From Desulfocapsa sulfexigens DSM 10523 (GTDB lineage: Bacteria > Desulfobacterota > Desulfobulbia > Desulfobulbales > Desulfocapsaceae): a stretch of DNA of 32,000 nucleotides. The stretch's first letter is position 1, and every line of letters starts with the position of its first letter. The translations under genes and the position numbers were made by a program. Below are positions 9,000 to 26,077 of the stretch, in pieces. The stretch lies in NCBI RefSeq assembly GCF_000341395.1, contig NC_020304.1, forward strand, positions 1,830,001-1,862,000, read 5' to 3'. The notes under the pieces were generated by a model, which worked only from the letters and a program-made list of their open reading frames with translations, ran no database searches and was not told where the DNA came from.

Positions 9000-9197
9000 A
9001 TGTGTCAGATGAGCGTATTGGTGAAAGGGCCTGAGAAGGAAGAGCTCGTAATGGAAAGTGTCACAAGATTAGAGGTAAGGGATGGTGGCGTCGAGGTGAG
9101 TACTTTTTTTGAAGAGCCGAGATTTGTATCTGATGTAGAAGTACAGACCATCGATTTTCTGGGTGGAAAAGTGTTACTGAAACAAACTGCAAAATAA
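9000..9197 (+). CDS. CooT-family small nickel-binding protein
   Basis: 65-aa ORF beginning MC (the Cys2 typical of CooT). Its length and beta-rich pattern (VxxLEVxxxGVxVxxFFEEP...V) match the CooT family. AAGGAG lies 7 nt upstream of the ATG. Confidence 0.65.
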   Translation: MCQMSVLVKGPEKEELVMESVTRLEVRDGGVEVSTFFEEPRFVSDVEVQTIDFLGGKVLLKQTAK

Positions 9198-9210
9198 TAA
9201 GGAGGACTTT

Positions 9211-9453
9211 GTGGATCAGTTAGAAAAAATACGAGTGTTGCTGCCTCACTGGATTGAGCATAATAAGGGGCACGCTGAAGAGTGCCGTAAATGGGCTGCT
9301 CAAGCTGAAGATAAAGATGTGAATTTACATCTGAATGCAGCTCTTACAGCTATGGAAGTTGTGACAAATCATCTGGAGAGAGCACTTGCTGCAGCAGGTG
9401 GAGCGAAAACGGATGATCATCATGACCACCATCATCATCACCACAAGCATTAA
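9211..9453 (+). CDS. small helical protein with poly-His tail (putative metal-binding/metallochaperone-like)
   Basis: 80-aa ORF with a GTG start preceded by AAGGAGG. The C-terminus is DDHHDHHHHHHKH (nt ~9414-9450). It lies 13 nt after the CooT-like gene. Confidence 0.6.
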   Translation: MDQLEKIRVLLPHWIEHNKGHAEECRKWAAQAEDKDVNLHLNAALTAMEVVTNHLERALAAAGGAKTDDHHDHHHHHHKH

Positions 9454-9483: not shown

Positions 9484-11946
9484 TTATTCCTCGGTGTAAA
9501 AACTCCATGTTTTAGTGGATGGTGAATACAGGTAATCCATCTGCAGACGCAGTGGTCTCCCTCCTGAAGTTTCAGTGCATTGCATTCTGAATAACATTTT
9601 GTCATCAATGTTTCTAAGGTATTCAACAGCAGGAGCACTGAGAGCAGACCGGGTTGCCGCTGGATAGTGTTTTAGGAATAATTTCTCGTAGTTGTCTGTC
9701 AGGTAGCTGATTTGTTCAATGAGAAGTACTTGTTTTTCTGCTTCTTCTATCTGGTTTGCAATTTCCTTGAGGATGGTTGTGAATTCTGCCTGGTCTGTAA
9801 ACTGACTCCTGGTGATGGCTTTTTGTATGGCTTCAAGTTTACCAATGGCCAATGCAAAATCATCAGACTTAAGGTGTTTTGCCACATCCTGTTTGTTTTT
9901 TATTATTTCCGCATGAAGCATGATTCTGGAAAGTTTGATGCGGCTTTCTTCGGTATCTATCCGACTGAGTAACTTGGAGTTCTCTTCAAGGAGAATAATA
10001 GCTTTTTCATACTGGGCAATAACTTCATCCCATTTTGAGGCTGCAAAAGCCTTCTTTCCCTTTTCGATGGTCATATATATCTTTGTCTTCGCAATATTTT
10101 CGTGAAGATTGGATATCGTATCTGATTTTGAAAGATTAAGCTTCTGAACAAGATCGAGGGCTAACTGATAGCTGCTGAGGGCTTTGTCCCACTCCCCGGC
10201 GTTGAAAAATTCATGGCCCTGATCTCGGAGGGTATTAAATTTTGCCTGATTAGAGAGAAGTTCTAGTTGGGTGATGTCTTCCGGCAGTACGTTTGGGTTT
10301 GCTTTTGCCAGCTGCAGAGCTTTGCCAAAATGGGTTGTAGCGCCATTCCAGTCAGAGATGCTTAGAGATTTTTCGCCAGCATGCATCATACTGTTAAATT
10401 GGGCGCGGGAGTGTTTCTGGTTGACCTCGGCAAGCATTGCGTCATCTATTGCTTCTGTCTTTTTTGCTATTTCTAATGCCTTAGCGTAGCTGCTTACCGC
10501 GTCAGCCCAACGTTCCTGGGTGAAAAAAGAATCACCATTCTTTTTGGTCTCCTGGAAAGTGAGCAAAAACTCTTTAGTCGTTTCTGTGATATATTGGCCA
10601 TCAAAAAGAATTTTCCCAGCCAGTCCTTGACGAAATTTAGGTGAAGCGAGGAGGTTCTCTATCTTTTTTGCAAGTTCGTCTTTTTCGTTCTGCTTGACTA
10701 GCTGTATCTCAGTAGTAAGGCGTAATGCTTCATTGCATTTTTTTTCAGCTCCCTGAAAATTGTTTGCAGTTAGAAGGTTTTGACATTCGTCGAACTGTTT
10801 CCTTGCTTTTTTCAGGTTTGATCCCAATGAAAGATAACTGAGAGTCACGGTGACAATAAGAGCAATGGAACCGCATGCTAATGCAAAGAAAAATAACTTT
10901 TTGCTAACTGCTTTAGAATCTTCGAAAAAGGTTCTTTTGGCCGATGATGGTGCATTAGAGTCTTGATCAGGAACGGAAGTTTCTGAGTCCTCAGCCGTGT
11001 CGTTGGAGTCCTGCTCGTCTGATACATTATTTACCCAGTCACCAAGAAGATCAAAGGCCTGTTGTACCCTGTCCTTCGCTTCTTGAAGATTTGGATAATC
11101 GGAGACCAGTTTCTCTATGGAAGTGTATTTTTCGAGTGCCTCCTTTTGCTTTCCCTGGTGCTCAAGCTTGTCAGCCTCGTGATAGATTGCCATGGCTTGA
11201 TCCATGGCTGTGCGAGTCTGTTCTTCAAAACCTTCACGACCTTCAAAAGGTTCATGGATTGACTGAAGTTCGCGAGAGAGAGCCTGGAAACGTTTCTGCT
11301 TGGCAATCACGCGCAAGCGGTCAGTATCTATTTTTACGGGTGGTGTAGATTCTTTGAGGGGTGCAAAGGAAGTACCGAAGTCATCGTCGTCAAGAGTGTC
11401 AATACCTTTCTGGTCGTCATCTGAAACGTCCCAGTCAATGCCTTCCTCAATGTCTTCCTCTATGGGAGTCGGAGTAATTTTTTCTAAATCAGGTGTGTCG
11501 AAGGGGAGCTGATCCCTGTTGTCTCTATACCAGTCGGCGGCTTCTTCATTGAAGGCATTGCTATTAGAGTATATTTCCCCGGAAATCATGCGGGCAATAT
11601 GAATAATAAGGGTGATTATAGACTTGTCGGCTTCCCAAACATCCCCGATACAAATTGCGGATGAGTCAAAATCTGGATGGAATGTAGGACTTTCCGGGAT
11701 ACAGTTAGGAGGAAAATGAGGAAAGCCAAATGGTAGGGAAATAGAAATGACATGATTGTCGCAACTGTAGACCTCACCGCTGTTTTCTCTGCACATTCCA
11801 GTTATCCTGAAACTGACAGTATATTGATCAGGAGGATTGCCTTCTCCAGGCATCACAGTTATAGCTGGGATGTCTGCAAAGTATTCGTTTACTTCCTGGA
11901 ACACTGTATCGAGTTGATTACTGGTTTTGTTCATAGCGGATGACAA
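9484..11946 (-). CDS. E2/UBC-like domain - acidic linker - single TM helix - TPR-like repeat array protein
   Basis: 820-aa ORF (numbering as in the ORF track; TTG at 11946, first ATG at 11934). The N-terminal ~145 aa match the UBC core: FPHFPP, HPD (11671-11679) and AICIG Cys99 (11650-11652). The TM segment LFFFALACGSIALIVTVTLSYL is aa 351-372 (10831-10896). aa ~375-740 form amphipathic helix pairs of TPR type. Confidence 0.8.
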   Translation of the reverse strand: MSSAMNKTSNQLDTVFQEVNEYFADIPAITVMPGEGNPPDQYTVSFRITGMCRENSGEVYSCDNHVISISLPFGFPHFPPNCIPESPTFHPDFDSSAICIGDVWEADKSIITLIIHIARMISGEIYSNSNAFNEEAADWYRDNRDQLPFDTPDLEKITPTPIEEDIEEGIDWDVSDDDQKGIDTLDDDDFGTSFAPLKESTPPVKIDTDRLRVIAKQKRFQALSRELQSIHEPFEGREGFEEQTRTAMDQAMAIYHEADKLEHQGKQKEALEKYTSIEKLVSDYPNLQEAKDRVQQAFDLLGDWVNNVSDEQDSNDTAEDSETSVPDQDSNAPSSAKRTFFEDSKAVSKKLFFFALACGSIALIVTVTLSYLSLGSNLKKARKQFDECQNLLTANNFQGAEKKCNEALRLTTEIQLVKQNEKDELAKKIENLLASPKFRQGLAGKILFDGQYITETTKEFLLTFQETKKNGDSFFTQERWADAVSSYAKALEIAKKTEAIDDAMLAEVNQKHSRAQFNSMMHAGEKSLSISDWNGATTHFGKALQLAKANPNVLPEDITQLELLSNQAKFNTLRDQGHEFFNAGEWDKALSSYQLALDLVQKLNLSKSDTISNLHENIAKTKIYMTIEKGKKAFAASKWDEVIAQYEKAIILLEENSKLLSRIDTEESRIKLSRIMLHAEIIKNKQDVAKHLKSDDFALAIGKLEAIQKAITRSQFTDQAEFTTILKEIANQIEEAEKQVLLIEQISYLTDNYEKLFLKHYPAATRSALSAPAVEYLRNIDDKMLFRMQCTETSGGRPLRLQMDYLYSPSTKTWSFYTEE

Positions 11947-12130: not shown

Positions 12131-13192
12131 ATGAAGCCACCGAAAATACATTTTAGAATTGTAACCGACAATAATTGTCCGTTATATAATGAAGGTGATT
12201 TACTGTCACTTTCAGCGAAAACTCTTACTTGTCCCGAAAACAAGGAGACTTGTCTGATTCTTGTACGGGAGATGACTAAGCTTCTCTTTGAACTGCTGGA
12301 CAGATCTCCAGAAGAAGAGGCAAGTACTAAGGTCTACAGCTGTAGTGGCTGTTCTGGACTTATTAAATTTCAACGTATTCCAGACGAACTTGCCAGGCAG
12401 GATGATCCAGTTTCCCCGGAGCAACCGCTTGACCCTGAAGGTGAGGCACTGCTGACAGAAATTTCTGATTTTCCAATAATTTGTGCTGTGCCGGATGTTG
12501 AGCTTGCTAATGTGATTCGCTGTTTTCGTAAAGAGCAACTTCCTGCAAATTTTACCTTTATCAACAAGGGAAGGCAGGGCATCTATCTCTATCTTATTCT
12601 TTCCGGCGACATTGTCGTCAGTGATAACGCACTTGCTATTGCCCACCTCGGAAGAGGAGACATTTGTGGAGAAATGAGCTATCTCGGGGGCGATGTTGCT
12701 GGTGCTGATGTGAAAACTGTTACGAAATCTGAAGTTCTTTCTATTACCGGTGATGCCTTCAGTCAACTTCTGGATCGTATCCCGGAACTACAACTCTTTA
12801 TGGCAAAAATACTGGTTCAGCGCCTGGCGAAATCCAATGCCAGTCATTTTAATGTCTTTGACGCCTGCATGAGTGGCTGGATTCGTGAAATGCCTCCGGC
12901 TGAATTGTTCCAGGTATTTCATATGCACCAGAAGACAGGAGTTCTTTCTCTTGATCTGCCTTTGGGTGTGGCGAAGGTCTCTTTTCGGGAGGGTTGTGTT
13001 ATTAATGCCCAATATAGAGATATGACCAGTCAGGAGGCTATTTTTGCCATGCTTAAGGAGCGAGAGGGAAGGTATACATTTACCAGCGGGCTTTCTCCCG
13101 AAGAGATGAAGGCTGCTGAGATTGGCGATTTTATGATGTTGCTTATGGAAGGAATAAAAAGAGTGGATGAGTCTGCTGAAGAAGGTAAATGA
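12131..13192 (+). CDS. Cys-rich N-domain + cyclic-nucleotide-binding (CAP_ED) + DUF4388/PATAN-like domain protein
   Basis: 353 aa. The cNMP-binding beta-barrel signature is GDICGEMSYLGG within aa ~110-230. The C-terminal block (PPAELFQVFHMHQKTGVLSLD...EGRYTF) resembles DUF4388. The N-terminal ~80 aa carry the Cys residues NCP...CP...C...CSGC. No DNA-binding HTH was recognised. Confidence 0.75.
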   Translation: MKPPKIHFRIVTDNNCPLYNEGDLLSLSAKTLTCPENKETCLILVREMTKLLFELLDRSPEEEASTKVYSCSGCSGLIKFQRIPDELARQDDPVSPEQPLDPEGEALLTEISDFPIICAVPDVELANVIRCFRKEQLPANFTFINKGRQGIYLYLILSGDIVVSDNALAIAHLGRGDICGEMSYLGGDVAGADVKTVTKSEVLSITGDAFSQLLDRIPELQLFMAKILVQRLAKSNASHFNVFDACMSGWIREMPPAELFQVFHMHQKTGVLSLDLPLGVAKVSFREGCVINAQYRDMTSQEAIFAMLKEREGRYTFTSGLSPEEMKAAEIGDFMMLLMEGIKRVDESAEEGK

Positions 13193-21697: not shown

Positions 21698-24600
21698 CTA
21701 CGTGATCTTTTGAATTTTTATCGCACATAGTTTGTACTCCGGTGTCCTTGAAAGCCTATCCAAGGCATCCAGGGTCAGGAAATTCACCAGTGCCTCAGTG
21801 TGGTTATAGGTTGCAAAGAGAGTTCCCTCCTGAGAACGATCGGTGAGAGTTGCCTTCATTTCCACCTTTCCTCGCCGGGAGGCCAAGCGCACCATATCTC
21901 CCTCCTTAATTTTATATCGTTTTGCATCGAGCGGATTTATTTCGACTTTTGCCTCAGGACTGATGGCATCAATCTCAGGGGTTTTCCCTGTCATGGAACT
22001 AAAATTATATCGGGCAAGATCACGGCCTGTGGTAAAATATAAAGGATACTCCTCGTCTACTTTTTCAACTGGAGGAATGTATTCTTCAGGAATAAAAAGT
22101 CCCTTACCTCGCGTAAATTCCTTGGTGTGAAGAACTGGGGTGCCCGGATGATCTACATCAGGAACAGGCCATTGCAAGCCCATTTTTTCAAGGCGTTCAT
22201 AGGTGATCCCTCTGTACTGGGGAAGCATTTTCCGAATCTCTTCAAAAATATCTTTAGGAGATTCGTAGTGCATATCATAACCCATCTTGTCGGACAGATC
22301 GCAGAATATTTTCCAATCAGGCCTGGCTTCTCCGGGTGGATCCACTGCCTTACGTACACGTTGCACTCTACGTTCAGTATTGGTAAAAGTACCATCTTTT
22401 TCTGCATAACATGCTGCTGGAAAAACTACATCAGCAGCTTTAGCTGTCTCGGTAAGAAAAATATCCTGAACGATCATAAAGTCCACCACGTCCAAGGCTT
22501 TGTGGACATGGGCAATATTAGGATCAGCAATAGCCGGGTCTTCTCCAAAGATGTAAAGTCCTTTGATTTCACCGGAAAGGACATTATCCCAGACCTCAGT
22601 TGCTGGTTTTCCCGGTATCCGTGGCAGTTTGACTTTCCACTCCTCTTCATAGCGATCAAAGAGGTTGATATCTTCAAAGCTGGTATATCCTGGGAGGGTG
22701 TTAAAAAGAGCTCCCATGTCACAGGCCCCCTGCACATTGTTCTGTCCTCGCAAGGGGTTGCAGCCACCGCCTGCAACACCGACTTTTCCACAAAGCATGG
22801 CCAGGTTGGCAATACTTTTGACACGATCCGTACCAGTCACGTAATGGGTGATTCCCATCCCATGATAGATGGCATGTCTTCCTGCTGCAGCATACATCCT
22901 GGCAACGGTGTAGAGTTGTTTTATAGGCAACCCTGTGATCCCTGATACATATTCGGGATTATATTTCGTAACTACTTCTTTTAAATAATTGAAATCTTCA
23001 GTGCGTTCTTCAACAAAATATTTATCCCAGAGAGTTTCCTCAAGAATGATGTGCATCAAACCATTCAGGAAAGCTACATCTGTACCTGGCTTTATTCTCA
23101 ACCAGTGATCTGCACGTTCTGCAAGCCTGGTCCTGCGAGGATCAACAACGATAAGCTTTGCCCCTTTGTCAACGGCCTGATGGATGCGCATTCCAATGGT
23201 TGGATGTCCGGTATCAGGGTTGGAACCGATCATAAGGAAAAGGTCTGTATTCTTTGAATCCATAATTGAGTTTGTCATTGCACCACTGCCAAATGTGAGG
23301 GCCAGACTGGCCACCGTTGGAGCGTGTCAGAGCCTGGCGCAATGGTCAATATTATTTGTCCCTATCGAGGTGCGCATGAATTTTTGCATGAGGTAGTTTT
23401 CCTCATTGGTTGCCCTGGCGCAGGAGAAAGCGGCTATTGAATCTGCTCCGTACATGGCCTTGAGGTCAAAAAACCTTTTTGCTGTATACTCCAGAGCCTC
23501 ATCCCACCCTACCTCAACAAGAATGCCATTTTTGCGAATGAGTGGTTTTTTCAATCTCTCTTTGTGCTGAACAAATTCATGTGCCAAGCGACCTTTGACG
23601 CAGAGAGCACCGTAGTTAGGAGCAAGGTCTTTCTCGGAGTTGACTTCAATGATAGTGTTGCCCTTCACCCGAAGAAGCATCTGACAACCTGCGCCACAGT
23701 AAGGACAGGTTGTACGTACTTCCCTGACAGCTTCTGCTTGAATAGGAATAGTCTGAGCCTTTTTATTCAATGCACCAGTTGAACAGCTGTCAATACAAGC
23801 TCCGCAAGAGACGCAGTTGTCTTTGAAGTTGATGGTCAGTCCTGTTATCTGACCAGCGCCATCCATGGATTCGATACCGAGTTCCAGGGCATCATACTCA
23901 CAGGATCTCTCACAGCGTCTGCAATAAATACATTTATCACGATCTATAATAAAAGCGGGATGACTGTAATCCTTTCCATAGATAGGGGTGATCCCCATGC
24001 CAGTTTTGTTGATATTGATGGTATGTTCTATTAACATCTTTTTCAGGTCACAACGATCAAAGGCCGTGCAACCGCACGAAAGACAGCGATCCGCTTCACG
24101 CCTGGCCATTTTTTCTGTGAAACCCAGTTTGACTTCGTCGAAGTCCTTGTTGCAAATTTCAGGAGGTCTGGTGGGCATTCTTTCGCGGAGCGTTATTTTG
24201 ATATCGCTAAAATTCTTGAAATCAACATCGTCAAAAGTTTTGCCACGTGTAAAATTAAAACGACTGTCAGCAGGTTCTTTATCCTCTCCCATGATGTAAG
24301 CATGAATATTTGTTGCAGCACGTCGTGCAGACACCACAGCCTGAATTACCGATTTTGGCCCTGAAACGGCATCTCCTCCGGCAAATATCCCATCAATATT
24401 CGTTTGCGATGTTCTCGTGTTGGAATTAATGGTTTCACGTGGGGAAAGTTCGATAGATTCTTCAATGTCACCACCTTCGAAATTTCCAGAAACAGCGGAC
24501 TGGCCAAGAGATGCAATGATAGAATCAACCTGTAAAATGTTGCTGGTGCCGGGAATAGGCTCTGGTTCACGCTTCCCTTTTGAGTTTTGTTTGCCAAGTT

Positions 24601-25816
24601 TCATCCTGATAAGCTTCAGTTCTAAACGTGAACGTTTGTTTTCTCGCTGGATGATTTCATAGGGAGACGCCATGAGCAGGAACTGAATGCCCTCATTCTC
24701 AGCCTCTTTAATGTTTCGTTGATGAGCAGTCATTTCCAGACGGGCACGAGGGTAAACAACTGTAACTTCGTCCACATCCTGACGAAGTAGGGTTCTGGCC
24801 ACTTCCATGGCTATATTGTTGCCGCCGATAACGGCCACACGTTTTCCAATATCTGTTTTTTTGCCTTCAGCTACTTTTCTCAAGTAGTTCATAGCAGTGT
24901 AAACATGAGGCCCAATACCACCCGGGATATCAAGAGAGTTATCAATTCCTGCGCCGGAAGCTATAAATACAGCATCATATCCCTGTTCTTTGAGAGACTG
25001 GATATTAAAATCACGTCCCCATTTTTGACTCAGCTTGACTGAGATGCCTAGGCGTAAAATGGTGTTAATTTCATAATCAAGTACTTCTCTTGGAATACGA
25101 TATTCGAGGAAGCCATATCGTAAAGCACCCCCAAGTTTGGGGGCTGCTTCAAAAATAGTGACTTCATGTCCTTTACGCGTTAAAAAATATGCAGCAGTGA
25201 GACCAGCAGGCCCTCCACCGATTATCGCAACCCGCTTTCCAGTTGGTTTGTCCTTTGTAATTTTCAGGTCGATCTCATGAGTCATGCACCAGTCAGCTAC
25301 AAAACGTTTAAGGTGATTGATTGAGACAGGTTCATCCACTAGAATGCGACGGCACCTTGTCTCACAAAAACGGGGGCAAACGCGACCAACGGAAAAGGGC
25401 ATAGGATTCCGTTCCATTATCAGACGCAGGGCCTCTTCGTATTGTCCCTTAGCAACATGGGCAATATAGCCTTGGACATTAATCTGTCCCGGACAGGTGA
25501 GATTACATGGAGCCTTACAATCCCCAAAATGGGTTTTGGCCAGTTTGCTCAATAGGTGCTGACGGTGTTTTGAGAGAGCATCTGAGTGAGTGATAACCAC
25601 CATTCCTTTCTGAACAGGGGTCACACAGGATTGCATAAAGTTACTCTGTCCTTCCACTTCAACGACACAGAGGTTGCAGGGAGTATCGGATGGTTTACCA
25701 TCCACATGGCATAGAGTCGGGATTATAATTCCAATTTGTCGCGCTGCCTCTAGTACTGTGGTGTTTTGGGGAACGGAAACATATCGTGAGTCAATTGAAA
25801 TGGTTATTAGATTCAT
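21698..25816 (-). CDS. fdhA: selenocysteine-containing formate dehydrogenase alpha subunit fused to N-terminal 2Fe-2S ferredoxin, GltD-like NAD(P)H/FAD module and 4Fe-4S domains
   Basis: The two ORF-track entries (23327..25858 and 21698..23314) are in the same frame, separated only by TGA at 23327-23329. Read-through gives ...[30 protein letters not shown], the FDH active-site Sec context. The upstream part has the 2Fe-2S fold (ITISIDSRYVSVPQNTTVLEAA...LCH) and two Rossmann motifs (VAIIGGGPAGLTAAYFL, VAVIGGNNIAMEVA). It also has CxxCxxCxxxC clusters and the Mo/W-bisPGD 4Fe-4S site CPYCGAGC. The start is ATG 25816 (preferred) or TTG 25858. Confidence 0.9.
23286..23326 (-). promoter_or_regulatory. 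SECIS-like stem-loop immediately 3' of the in-frame UGA
   Basis: mRNA sequence: UGA CACGCUCCAACGGU GGCCA-GUC-UGGCC CUCACAUUUGG. The 5-bp apical stem (plus-strand 23300-23312) has a GUC loop and starts 14 nt after the UGA. CCAA/UUGG could form a lower stem. It resembles the E. coli fdhF SECIS apex (UGCA-GGUC-UGCA). Confidence 0.6.
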
Positions 25817-26077
25817 AAGATATCGTTTACTCTTGAGTGCGCTAAATTTGACAGACAAATCAAATTTTCAAATTGTTTTGTCAGGTCGGGTAGATTGACT
25901 CCATGCTCTAGCTGAGAGTCTAGTGAAAAAACAATATATATCTTCCTCGACCACATATGTCAAGATTGGCATAGTTTAAAACAAACACAATGTAAAAGGT
26001 CTATGAAAAATTTGTGATACATTGAAGATAACAATGGGCAACAGTTGTGGGCCTGTCCTAATAAAAAATAAAATCTT

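Follow-up and report, generated by a model that had tools for sequence, protein, structure and literature searches.

A membrane-anchored E2-fold protein encoded beside dsrAB in Desulfocapsa sulfexigens: predicted fold, descent and candidate function

To our knowledge, bacterial proteins resembling ubiquitin-conjugating enzymes (E2s) are known almost only from patchy operons that also encode an E1-like enzyme, a JAB peptidase and a ubiquitin-like protein (Ubl), many of them tied to phage defence. In a stretch of 32,000 nucleotides (nt) of the Desulfocapsa sulfexigens DSM 10523 chromosome (NC_020304.1, positions 1,830,001 to 1,862,000; hereafter the window), a minus-strand open reading frame (ORF) of 820 amino acids, confirmed at 9484-11946 by translation of the window, combines an E2-like N-terminal domain with a transmembrane (TM) helix and TPR repeats, and stands alone. 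The question raised by this locus is whether the encoded E2-TPR protein is a stand-alone conjugation or thioester-relay enzyme, as the original prediction from the DNA letters had proposed, or whether the E2 fold serves as a binding module, its fallback. With modest confidence, we favour the second: a pseudo-E2-like transmembrane binding scaffold or adaptor in the manner of UEV and RWD proteins, whose family function would not require thioester chemistry. The evidence that carries this reading is the replacement of the presumptive catalytic Cys by a conserved Arg in full-length orthologues, at least two of which occupy the same chromosomal slot.

The N-terminal domain and its catalytic position

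According to sequence profiles and a structural model, the N-terminal ~146 amino acids form a true UBC/E2 fold. With residues 1-167 alone as the query, the Pfam family UQ_con (PF00179) matched aa 47-146 at E=1.2e-6 and 28.6 bits, above the gathering cut-off of 27 bits; the full protein scored 25.3 bits, just under it, and relatives scored 24-45 bits. A single-sequence phmmer search of the PDB gave 61 matches at E<=10, nearly all of them E2 enzymes, the best being clam E2-C (E=6e-5) with Cys99 aligned onto the catalytic Cys. A profile of 22 family sequences matched 62 PDB sequences at E<=1e-3, and all 60 listed were E2s. The AlphaFold2 (AF2) model of aa 1-167 (pLDDT 88.6, pTM 0.84) followed the secondary-structure order of the UBC fold, with a helix at 3-23, five short strands within aa 29-70, a flap strand at 81-84 and helices at 101-107, 110-122 and 134-142. 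Foldseek returned 346 PDB matches for this model at E<=1e-3, the top 50 being without exception E2s or E2-fold variants, for example FTS. The UBC fold had been claimed in the original prediction, and it was borne out by each of these comparisons, two of which (UQ_con, AlphaFold with Foldseek) had been suggested there. A further suggestion, a comparison with the families Prok-E2_A to Prok-E2_E, gave no Prok-E2 Pfam match to the window protein even at E<=10.

Canonical eukaryotic E2s (UQ_con; E2-C/UbcH10, Ube2N, UbcH5) were the best matches in sequence and structure, at ~17-22% identity, and display the same motif order: P-x-x-P-P flap, H-P-x, Cys, Trp and crossover helix. The spacing differs, HPD-to-Cys being one residue and Cys-to-Trp three residues shorter than in canonical E2s, so that the earlier statement of motifs "all in register" applies to their order and not to their distances. 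Also unlike canonical E2s, the window protein lacks the SPA and PxxxP loop motifs, continues into a TM helix and 450 aa of periplasmic sequence, has no E1/Ubl context, and carries a Cys that is not conserved among its orthologues. Where a competent E2 would have HPN, whose Asn positions the thioester for transfer (PMC11354881), it has HPD. This triad was found in all 118 close homologues as well and is invariant in the orphan group, HPN being confined to operon-encoded relatives.

An exhaustive profile search with the E2 domain only yielded 1198 cluster representatives at E<=1e-3, 601 at <=1e-10 and 148 at <=1e-30. Among 145 newly listed representatives and five retrieved earlier, three motif types were distinguished. 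Type 1, that of the window, reads PPxC...FHPD...AIC...W and comprises proteins of ~800-900 aa with the TM helix near residue 350. Type 2 (PPTV...FHPD...AIR...W) has the same size and TM position. Type 3 (PPQC...FHPN...AIC...W) has the canonical Asn, is variable in length, often lacks a TM helix and includes the top UQ_con scores (38-45 bits).

Type 2 was identified by homology search as the version of the sister family Desulfobulbaceae (Desulfobulbus spp., Desulfolithobacter dissulfuricans and others). In BLASTP, its members align with the window protein end to end, from residue 5 to ~818 (for example P0189 at 2e-96). Two of the three loci examined, those of P0189 and P0196, represent the same slot, with PatA_N divergent upstream and DUF8180, CooT, SIS-CBS, BPL, DsrD, DsrBA and PGI downstream; at P0189, the DUF8180 slot is filled by an unannotated 82-aa gene. 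At the position of the catalytic Cys, the 111 Desulfobulbaceae orthologues retrieved have Arg in 110 cases and His in one, with HPD and Trp invariant and C82 exchanged for Val, Ala or Ile. Bub E2s without Cys can still be enzymes by way of a Ser oxyester (PMC11601596); since the Arg-type E2 domain has no position at which Ser, Thr or Cys reaches >=90% conservation, such a mechanism has no obvious nucleophile there. The domain is already tagged in public databases: in NCBI and UniRef, some Arg-type proteins bear the name "ubiquitin-conjugating enzyme E2" or "UBC core domain-containing protein".

An approximate neighbour-joining (NJ) tree was built from 180 non-redundant domains, and 11 motif residues were followed on it. 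Position 99 was the least stable of them, with ~14 switches between Cys and another residue. No change was counted at H90, P91, P76, P80 or A136, and a single one at W104. The original prediction had proposed to examine the conservation of H90, P91, D92 and C99 among orthologues, and had regarded loss of the Cys or of HPD as a sign of a non-catalytic fold. The triad proved to be invariant in the orthologous group; Cys99 is kept in the lineage of the window and is not conserved at the level of the orthologous family.

Some Desulfocapsa genomes contain a tandem duplication of the gene (L090, 10001-14509; L024, 1080-4373). The upstream copy of ~690 aa has lost Cys99 (F, T or N instead) and ~110 aa of the TPR region, and the downstream copy of ~804 aa keeps the Cys. 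In L090, the Cys-less and Cys-bearing neighbours recall the pairing of inactive and active partners in Mms2-Ubc13.

Chromosomal slot and kinship with operon-encoded E2s

The window represents an ordinary sulfate-reducer chromosome that encodes PGI, DsrA/B, a biotin/lipoate ligase, AhcY, MetK, a KpsF-like SIS-CBS protein, CooT, SecDF and a selenocysteine-type molybdopterin oxidoreductase, among others, and the guanine-cytosine (GC) content is unremarkable. Relatives were scanned with one genome per species (183 relatives), and the loci of the best 80 of the 183 were compared; nearly all of these are labelled Desulfocapsa, Desulfofustis, Desulfopila, Desulforhopalus, Desulfosediminicola, or metagenome-assembled genomes of Desulfocapsaceae/Desulfobulbaceae. 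All but one (79/80) contain the common block SecDF-CxxCxxCC-HAD-(cNMP-PATAN, divergent)-E2-TPR-(DUF8180-CooT)-KpsF-MetK-AhcY-BPL-DsrB-DsrA-PGI. Across the 79 syntenic reference-genome loci, the identity of the E2-TPR protein drops from 70% to 31%. The comparison marks the gene as part of the vertically inherited core of the order Desulfobulbales, in a fixed slot beside dsrAB and not on an island.

In three complete Desulfocapsaceae chromosomes (L065, L069 and L079), 55-112 kb separate the dsrAB/E2-TPR/secDF block from the first base of the record; the chromosomal position of the block may also be conserved.

The cognate partners of a competent E2 were absent from the loci searched. No E1, Ubl, JAB or RING gene is present in the window, and tblastn searches for Ubl, E1, JAB, RING, FHA and VWA proteins gave no match in 1.53 Mb comprising the window and 85 related loci. 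This agrees with, and extends, the earlier statement that no E1, Ubl or JAB gene lies within ~10 kb and that the flanks are of housekeeping type (PGI, dsrAB, AhcY, MetK and others).

The closest canonical relatives of the E2 domain are the type 3 domains, which are 33-40% identical to it (BLASTP 104-127 bits; profile E down to ~1e-31). They belong to bacterial Ubl-E1-E2-RING operons, Prok-RING_1 systems predicted by comparative genomics (loci L081, L089, L084/L085 and L088), and form the N-terminus of large proteins, many with a TM helix. Unlike the window gene, these HPN+Cys E2s are encoded beside a Gly-ending YukD-like Ubl, a ThiF E1, FHA and RING(-RDD) proteins, joined in L081 by JAB and VWA. 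On the contig of P0252, genes in one direction encode a YukD-like Ubl (...TAG end), a ThiF E1, a JAB peptidase, a 175-aa protein, a VWA-FHA protein, two Prok-RING_1 proteins (one fused to RDD) and two large UQ_con proteins. P0251 is part of a Ubl/ThiF/FHA/Prok-RING/UQ_con/trypsin operon, P0262 lies near a Prok-RING gene, and P0232 (HPN+Cys, TM at residue 525) directly follows a Prok-RING-RDD gene.

In BLASTP, type 3 proteins share with the window protein the E2 domain only. The sole exception is P0232, in which the TM helix and the first TPR stretch are also shared (27% over 142 aa, E=4e-9), so that it can be regarded as an architectural intermediate; no other operon E2 has any part of the window protein's C-terminal region. 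The window protein therefore has the E2-domain homology of this group and lacks its adjacency to Prok-RING, ThiF and YukD-type Ubl genes. As its closest HPN+Cys relatives sit in YukD-Ubl/ThiF/Prok-RING operons and the window holds no such partners, it is best seen, judging from these comparisons, as an orphan that arose from the membrane-anchored E2s found in bacterial Ubl-E1-E2-RING systems. Recent acquisition from a eukaryote was rejected, the nearest relatives being prokaryote-type operon E2s at 33-40% identity, against ~20% to eukaryotic E2s.

Candidate function and competing explanations

A single hydrophobic segment, the TM helix, was found in 116 of 119 homologues, which sustains the membrane anchor claimed in the original prediction. 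Flanking K+R residues averaged 4.4 on its N side versus 2.0 on its C side, and no N-terminal signal sequence was found in the topology analysis of the homologues. From the charge bias and the missing signal, the E2 domain is predicted to face the cytoplasm, with the TPR array and C-terminal domain on the periplasmic side; the protein should thus be a bitopic inner-membrane protein in N-in/C-out orientation, as predicted from this signal. Tail-anchored endoplasmic reticulum (ER) E2s (Ubc6/UBE2J), to which the topology had been likened, similarly expose a cytosolic E2 domain held by one TM helix. Their helix is located at the extreme C-terminus, whereas that of the window protein (aa 351-372 of 820) is followed by 448 residues across the membrane, so the likeness extends to the cytosolic orientation only.

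Full-length orthologues, at least two of them in the same slot, carry a conserved Arg, which suggests that the function common to the family needs no thioester chemistry. Arg cannot form an ester. As the face formed by HPD, position 99 and Trp104 is under strong constraint, and the Arg itself is conserved in Desulfobulbaceae, this old active-site face would still be a functional surface, and the E2 domain would act as a UEV/RWD-like protein-binding module. The proposed layout comprises a pseudo-E2-like module, an acidic tail, a helical module, one TM helix and a periplasmic TPR solenoid capped by an alpha+beta domain. In this arrangement a cytoplasmic partner would be tethered to the periplasmic TPR/alpha+beta scaffold, and the protein would act between cytoplasm and periplasm as an adaptor or signal transducer. 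The fallback reading of the original prediction, a UEV-like binding module, is hence better supported than its proposal of a stand-alone conjugation or thioester-relay enzyme, against which stand the Arg-type orthologues, the ~14 changes at position 99 on the tree, the T/F/N residues of the tandem paralogues and the exchange of HPN for HPD.

Precedents for such a use exist. UEV (Mms2/Uev1a/Tsg101), RWD and FTS/AKTIP proteins employ the UBC fold as a binding module without thioester chemistry, as the Arg-type orthologues must; RWD and UEV are non-catalytic UBC members (PMC6601020), and the FTS-Hook3-FHIP1B structure 8qat_D was among the top Foldseek matches. Sequence affinity specific to the UEV or RWD families was not detected, and the window protein differs from both in that it keeps the Cys, is anchored in the membrane and has no ubiquitin in its host. 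Since its Cys99 is kept, it is not formally a pseudo-E2; loss of the Cys applies to the Arg-type orthologues and the tandem paralogues. In Desulfocapsaceae, where Cys99 and Cys82 persist, the protein may have an additional thiol-dependent role.

The best candidate for a cytoplasmic partner of the E2 domain is the divergently encoded cNMP-binding PATAN protein. Its gene was found in 63 of 86 loci, and in Desulfobulbaceae it keeps its place next to the E2-TPR gene even in loci whose upstream flank is otherwise different. PATAN domains are known to mediate protein interactions, docking regulators onto the motor of the type IV pilus (bioRxiv 10.1101/2021.06.11.447907).

Several points weigh against the scaffold reading. 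The binding partner is so far a candidate only, and the PATAN gene is genuinely absent from ~13 of the 86 loci. Synteny of this depth can reflect inheritance alone. The absence of E1 and Ubl genes applies to the window and the 85 loci, and an E1 or Ubl may be encoded elsewhere in the genome. Arguments from a missing Cys have failed before, as with the Bub E2s, which had been regarded as inactive until their Ser oxyester came to light (PMC11601596). The count of Cys99 losses comes from an NJ tree that has no support values and an assumed root. Finally, Cys99 is kept in 111 of 118 close homologues and in 101 of 120 non-redundant sequences on a C82+HPD background, and this retention in the clade of the window fits a chemical role there.

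Such a chemical role is the core of the strongest competing explanation, an active stand-alone E2 in Desulfocapsaceae. Cys99 would form a thioester with a Ubl or a MoaD/ThiS-type sulfur carrier, supplied by an unlinked E1-like enzyme and directed at membrane-proximal targets, and the Arg type would be a later, separate loss. Besides the retention of Cys99 in close homologues, its alignment with the catalytic Cys, the intact His, Pro, Trp and fold, and the complete cascades around the nearest canonical relatives are in line with this explanation. We nevertheless consider it unlikely, given that none of the 86 neighbourhoods contains an E1, Ubl, JAB or RING gene, that HPN has become HPD throughout the orphan group, that orthologues of the same slot and architecture carry a conserved Arg, and that Cys99 is both the least stable of the motif residues followed and the one lost in tandem copies.

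A two-stage variant appears quite improbable: the Desulfocapsaceae protein would still be a working membrane E2 or Cys relay, charged by an unlinked E1-like enzyme and possibly operating with a sulfur-carrier-type beta-grasp protein, and the Desulfobulbaceae protein would be a scaffold after conversion to a pseudo-enzyme. If true, it would imply that transfer of a ubiquitin-like (or thiocarboxylate/persulfide) kind is a housekeeping process at the inner membrane of sulfate reducers, and would reveal a natural, order-wide bacterial transition from E2 to pseudo-E2 that parallels the origin of eukaryotic UEV/RWD proteins.

The cysteines themselves could alternatively be the point of the protein. 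In a thiol/redox or metal-sensing membrane protein, C82/C99 in the cytoplasm and C388/C404 in the periplasm of the Desulfocapsaceae form would be the responsive switches, and the E2 fold their scaffold. Cys99 is always accompanied by Cys82 (199 sequences with both, 0 with C99 alone), the Desulfobulbaceae lost the four cysteines on both sides of the membrane together while keeping C790 of the C-terminal domain, and a CooT homologue and a His-rich DUF8180 protein are conserved neighbours. The loss of the four cysteines is, however, essentially one lineage-level event, and 13 of the 18 sporadic Cys99 losers retain the periplasmic pair. The operon-type (type 3) E2s have Cys82 as well, and it is therefore ancestral, not a new sensor residue; the equivalent position in canonical E2s is a buried beta4 residue, and Ubc9 also has "PPKC". 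Overall, we regard a redox or metal switch as very unlikely. The periplasmic pair follows the pattern C-x(14-17)-C; proteins P0271-P0381 may be compared.

The least credible explanation assigns the protein to an anti-phage or mobile defence system of ubiquitin-like type (Bil, Bub or CBASS-Cap2-like) with its partners outside the window. It draws on the prominence of such systems among the known sources of bacterial E2-like proteins (PMC10557695, PMC11601596) and on the integrase-bearing region of the relative P0232. It is contradicted by the missing operon partners, by the lack of any PADLOC defence-system or E2 match (only a weak JukB match, E=0.01, in the helical-repeat region outside the E2 domain), by the lack of a Prok-E2 match, and by a core-chromosomal slot between dsrAB and secDF across the whole order, with unremarkable GC content, which is the opposite of patchy defence islands. 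A defence island at this locus was rejected on the synteny and the PADLOC result.

The family contrasts with what is known of bacterial E2-like proteins in being a single-copy core gene beside dsrAB across an order of sulfate reducers, with a UBC fold predicted on the cytoplasmic side of a transmembrane TPR scaffold. It constitutes a natural experiment with three states, namely operon HPN+Cys, orphan HPD+Cys (Desulfocapsaceae) and orphan HPD+Arg (Desulfobulbaceae), and could reveal the route from an E2 to a pseudo-enzyme, what an old active-site face binds, and the role of a ubiquitin-fold module in ordinary bacterial physiology. The related operons, which pair a membrane-anchored E2 with a membrane RING-RDD protein, may bear on the origin of membrane-associated ubiquitination. 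In the searchable literature, the architecture was not described and no characterised bacterial example was found, in keeping with the original prediction, which was aware of none; comparative-genomics surveys beyond that search may mention it. The fold family is known; new is an orphaned, order-wide, membrane-spanning E2-fold protein with a Cys/Arg dichotomy, linked by evolution to uncharacterised Ubl-E1-E2-RING operons.

Gene model, features and neighbouring genes

The coordinates of the features are compiled in Table 1. Those given in the original prediction for the ORF, the HPD triad, Cys99 and the TM helix fit the arithmetic of the translation. The length of 820 aa corresponds to the ORF as described; translation probably begins at the ATG of nt 11934, giving 816 aa, because the residue aligned there begins most homologues and the 97%-identical protein P0001 has 816 aa.

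Table 1. Features of the E2-TPR gene and of neighbouring genes (positions in the window; residue numbers count from TTG 11946)
Feature	Position	Strand	Description
Whole ORF	9484-11946	-	820 aa from TTG 11946; E2 fold, acidic/helical cytoplasmic region, TM helix, TPR array, C-terminal alpha+beta domain
UBC/E2-fold domain	11497-11934	-	aa 5-150, predicted cytoplasmic; Pfam UQ_con, PDB sequence matches, AF2/Foldseek
Cys82 in "PPNC" flap/beta4	11701-11703	-	invariant in Cys type; Val/Ala/Ile in Arg type
HPD triad H90-P91-D92	11671-11679	-	H and P invariant in 180 non-redundant relatives; Asp in orphan group, Asn in operon-encoded relatives
Cys99	11650-11652	-	aligned to E2 catalytic Cys; kept in the lineage of the window, Arg in Desulfobulbaceae orthologues
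Acidic linker	11302-11496	-	aa 151-215, poorly conserved, 20 D/E in 65 aa; carries conserved "IDTLDDxDF" motif
Cytoplasmic helical module	11032-11301	-	aa 216-305, conserved "EHQG...AL.KY...VSDYP...RVQQA.DLLGDW"; weak MIT/TPR-like matches
TM helix	10831-10896	-	aa 351-372, single; N-in/C-out by flanking charge
Juxtamembrane extracytoplasmic Cys pair C388...C404	10735-10785	-	in 159/166 Cys-type vs 2/146 Arg-type proteins
Helical-repeat region, predicted periplasmic	9742-10830	-	Pfam TPR_2/TPR_11/TPR_1 motifs at ~aa 464-602
C-terminal alpha+beta domain	9487-9741	-	helices on a 4-stranded antiparallel sheet; conserved C790; duplicated in some homologues
His-rich 80-aa protein	9211-9453	+	convergent with the E2-TPR gene; homologues carry Pfam DUF8180
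CooT homologue	9000-9197	+	65 aa; adjoins the His-rich 80-aa gene
cNMP-binding + PatA_N (PATAN/DUF4388) protein	12131-13192	+	divergent; most persistent non-housekeeping neighbour
Selenocysteine-type oxidoreductase gene	21698-25858	-	in-frame TGA at 23327-23329

Between the E2 domain and the TM helix, the original prediction had placed an acidic linker of ~190 aa. This stretch is indeed acidic (49 D/E vs 24 K/R in aa 151-350), but ~aa 216-305 within it form a conserved helical module. Behind the TM helix, ~370 aa had been called TPR-like. TPR_2 (43.4 bits; cut-off 27), TPR_11 (36.3; 26.8) and TPR_1 (28.1; 27.8) exceeded their Pfam cut-offs, in agreement with this description; the motifs cover ~aa 464-602, and the remaining stretch is putatively TPR-like. 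An NCBIfam scan was uninformative, giving TPR-driven matches only. The C-terminal domain, previously described as ~80 aa that could not be assigned, comprises ~85 aa and was modelled confidently as an alpha+beta domain (pLDDT 92). Foldseek found no significant match for it, the best being SnoaL/NTF2/cystatin-like cones at E=0.033, and it was therefore left without a family. A promoter and terminator scan around the gene gave nothing above shuffle expectation.

Upstream contexts of at least three kinds were seen in which the DUF8180 gene still adjoins the E2-TPR gene, in some cases overlapping the 3' end of the latter; a functional tie between the two is unproven. In the window, the His-rich protein ends ...DDHHDHHHHHHKH and forms a conserved pair with CooT (9000-9453). 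CooT and DUF8180 look like a nickel/metal-chaperone pair.

Two observations concern the related operons. At L084/L085, a Prok-RING_1+RDD membrane protein is followed by P0232, an HPN+Cys E2 of 1036 aa with a TM helix and a TPR-like stretch, in a region that also encodes an integrase, a Y-family polymerase and a replication-protein fragment; this may be a mobile minimal membrane E2/E3 pair. An N-terminal sequence "DDKIRIxWDDL" occurs on different type 3 operon proteins (the 175-aa, VWA-FHA, RING-RDD and FHA proteins; L081, nt 2737, 3286 and 5107, plus strand; L089, nt 2631, plus strand) and looks like a common recognition or docking tag. Kinship of this tag with the linker motif "IDTLDDxDF" was considered and found unsupported, the strict tag being absent from all members of the E2-TPR family.

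Elsewhere in the window, the minus-strand ORFs 23327-25858 and 21698-23314 represent one gene, interrupted by an in-frame TGA in the context ...DHCARL-TGA-HAPTVASL, which is the classic selenocysteine site of formate-dehydrogenase-type molybdopterin enzymes. The product carries fused 2Fe-2S, Fer4_20 and pyridine-nucleotide-disulphide oxidoreductase domains.

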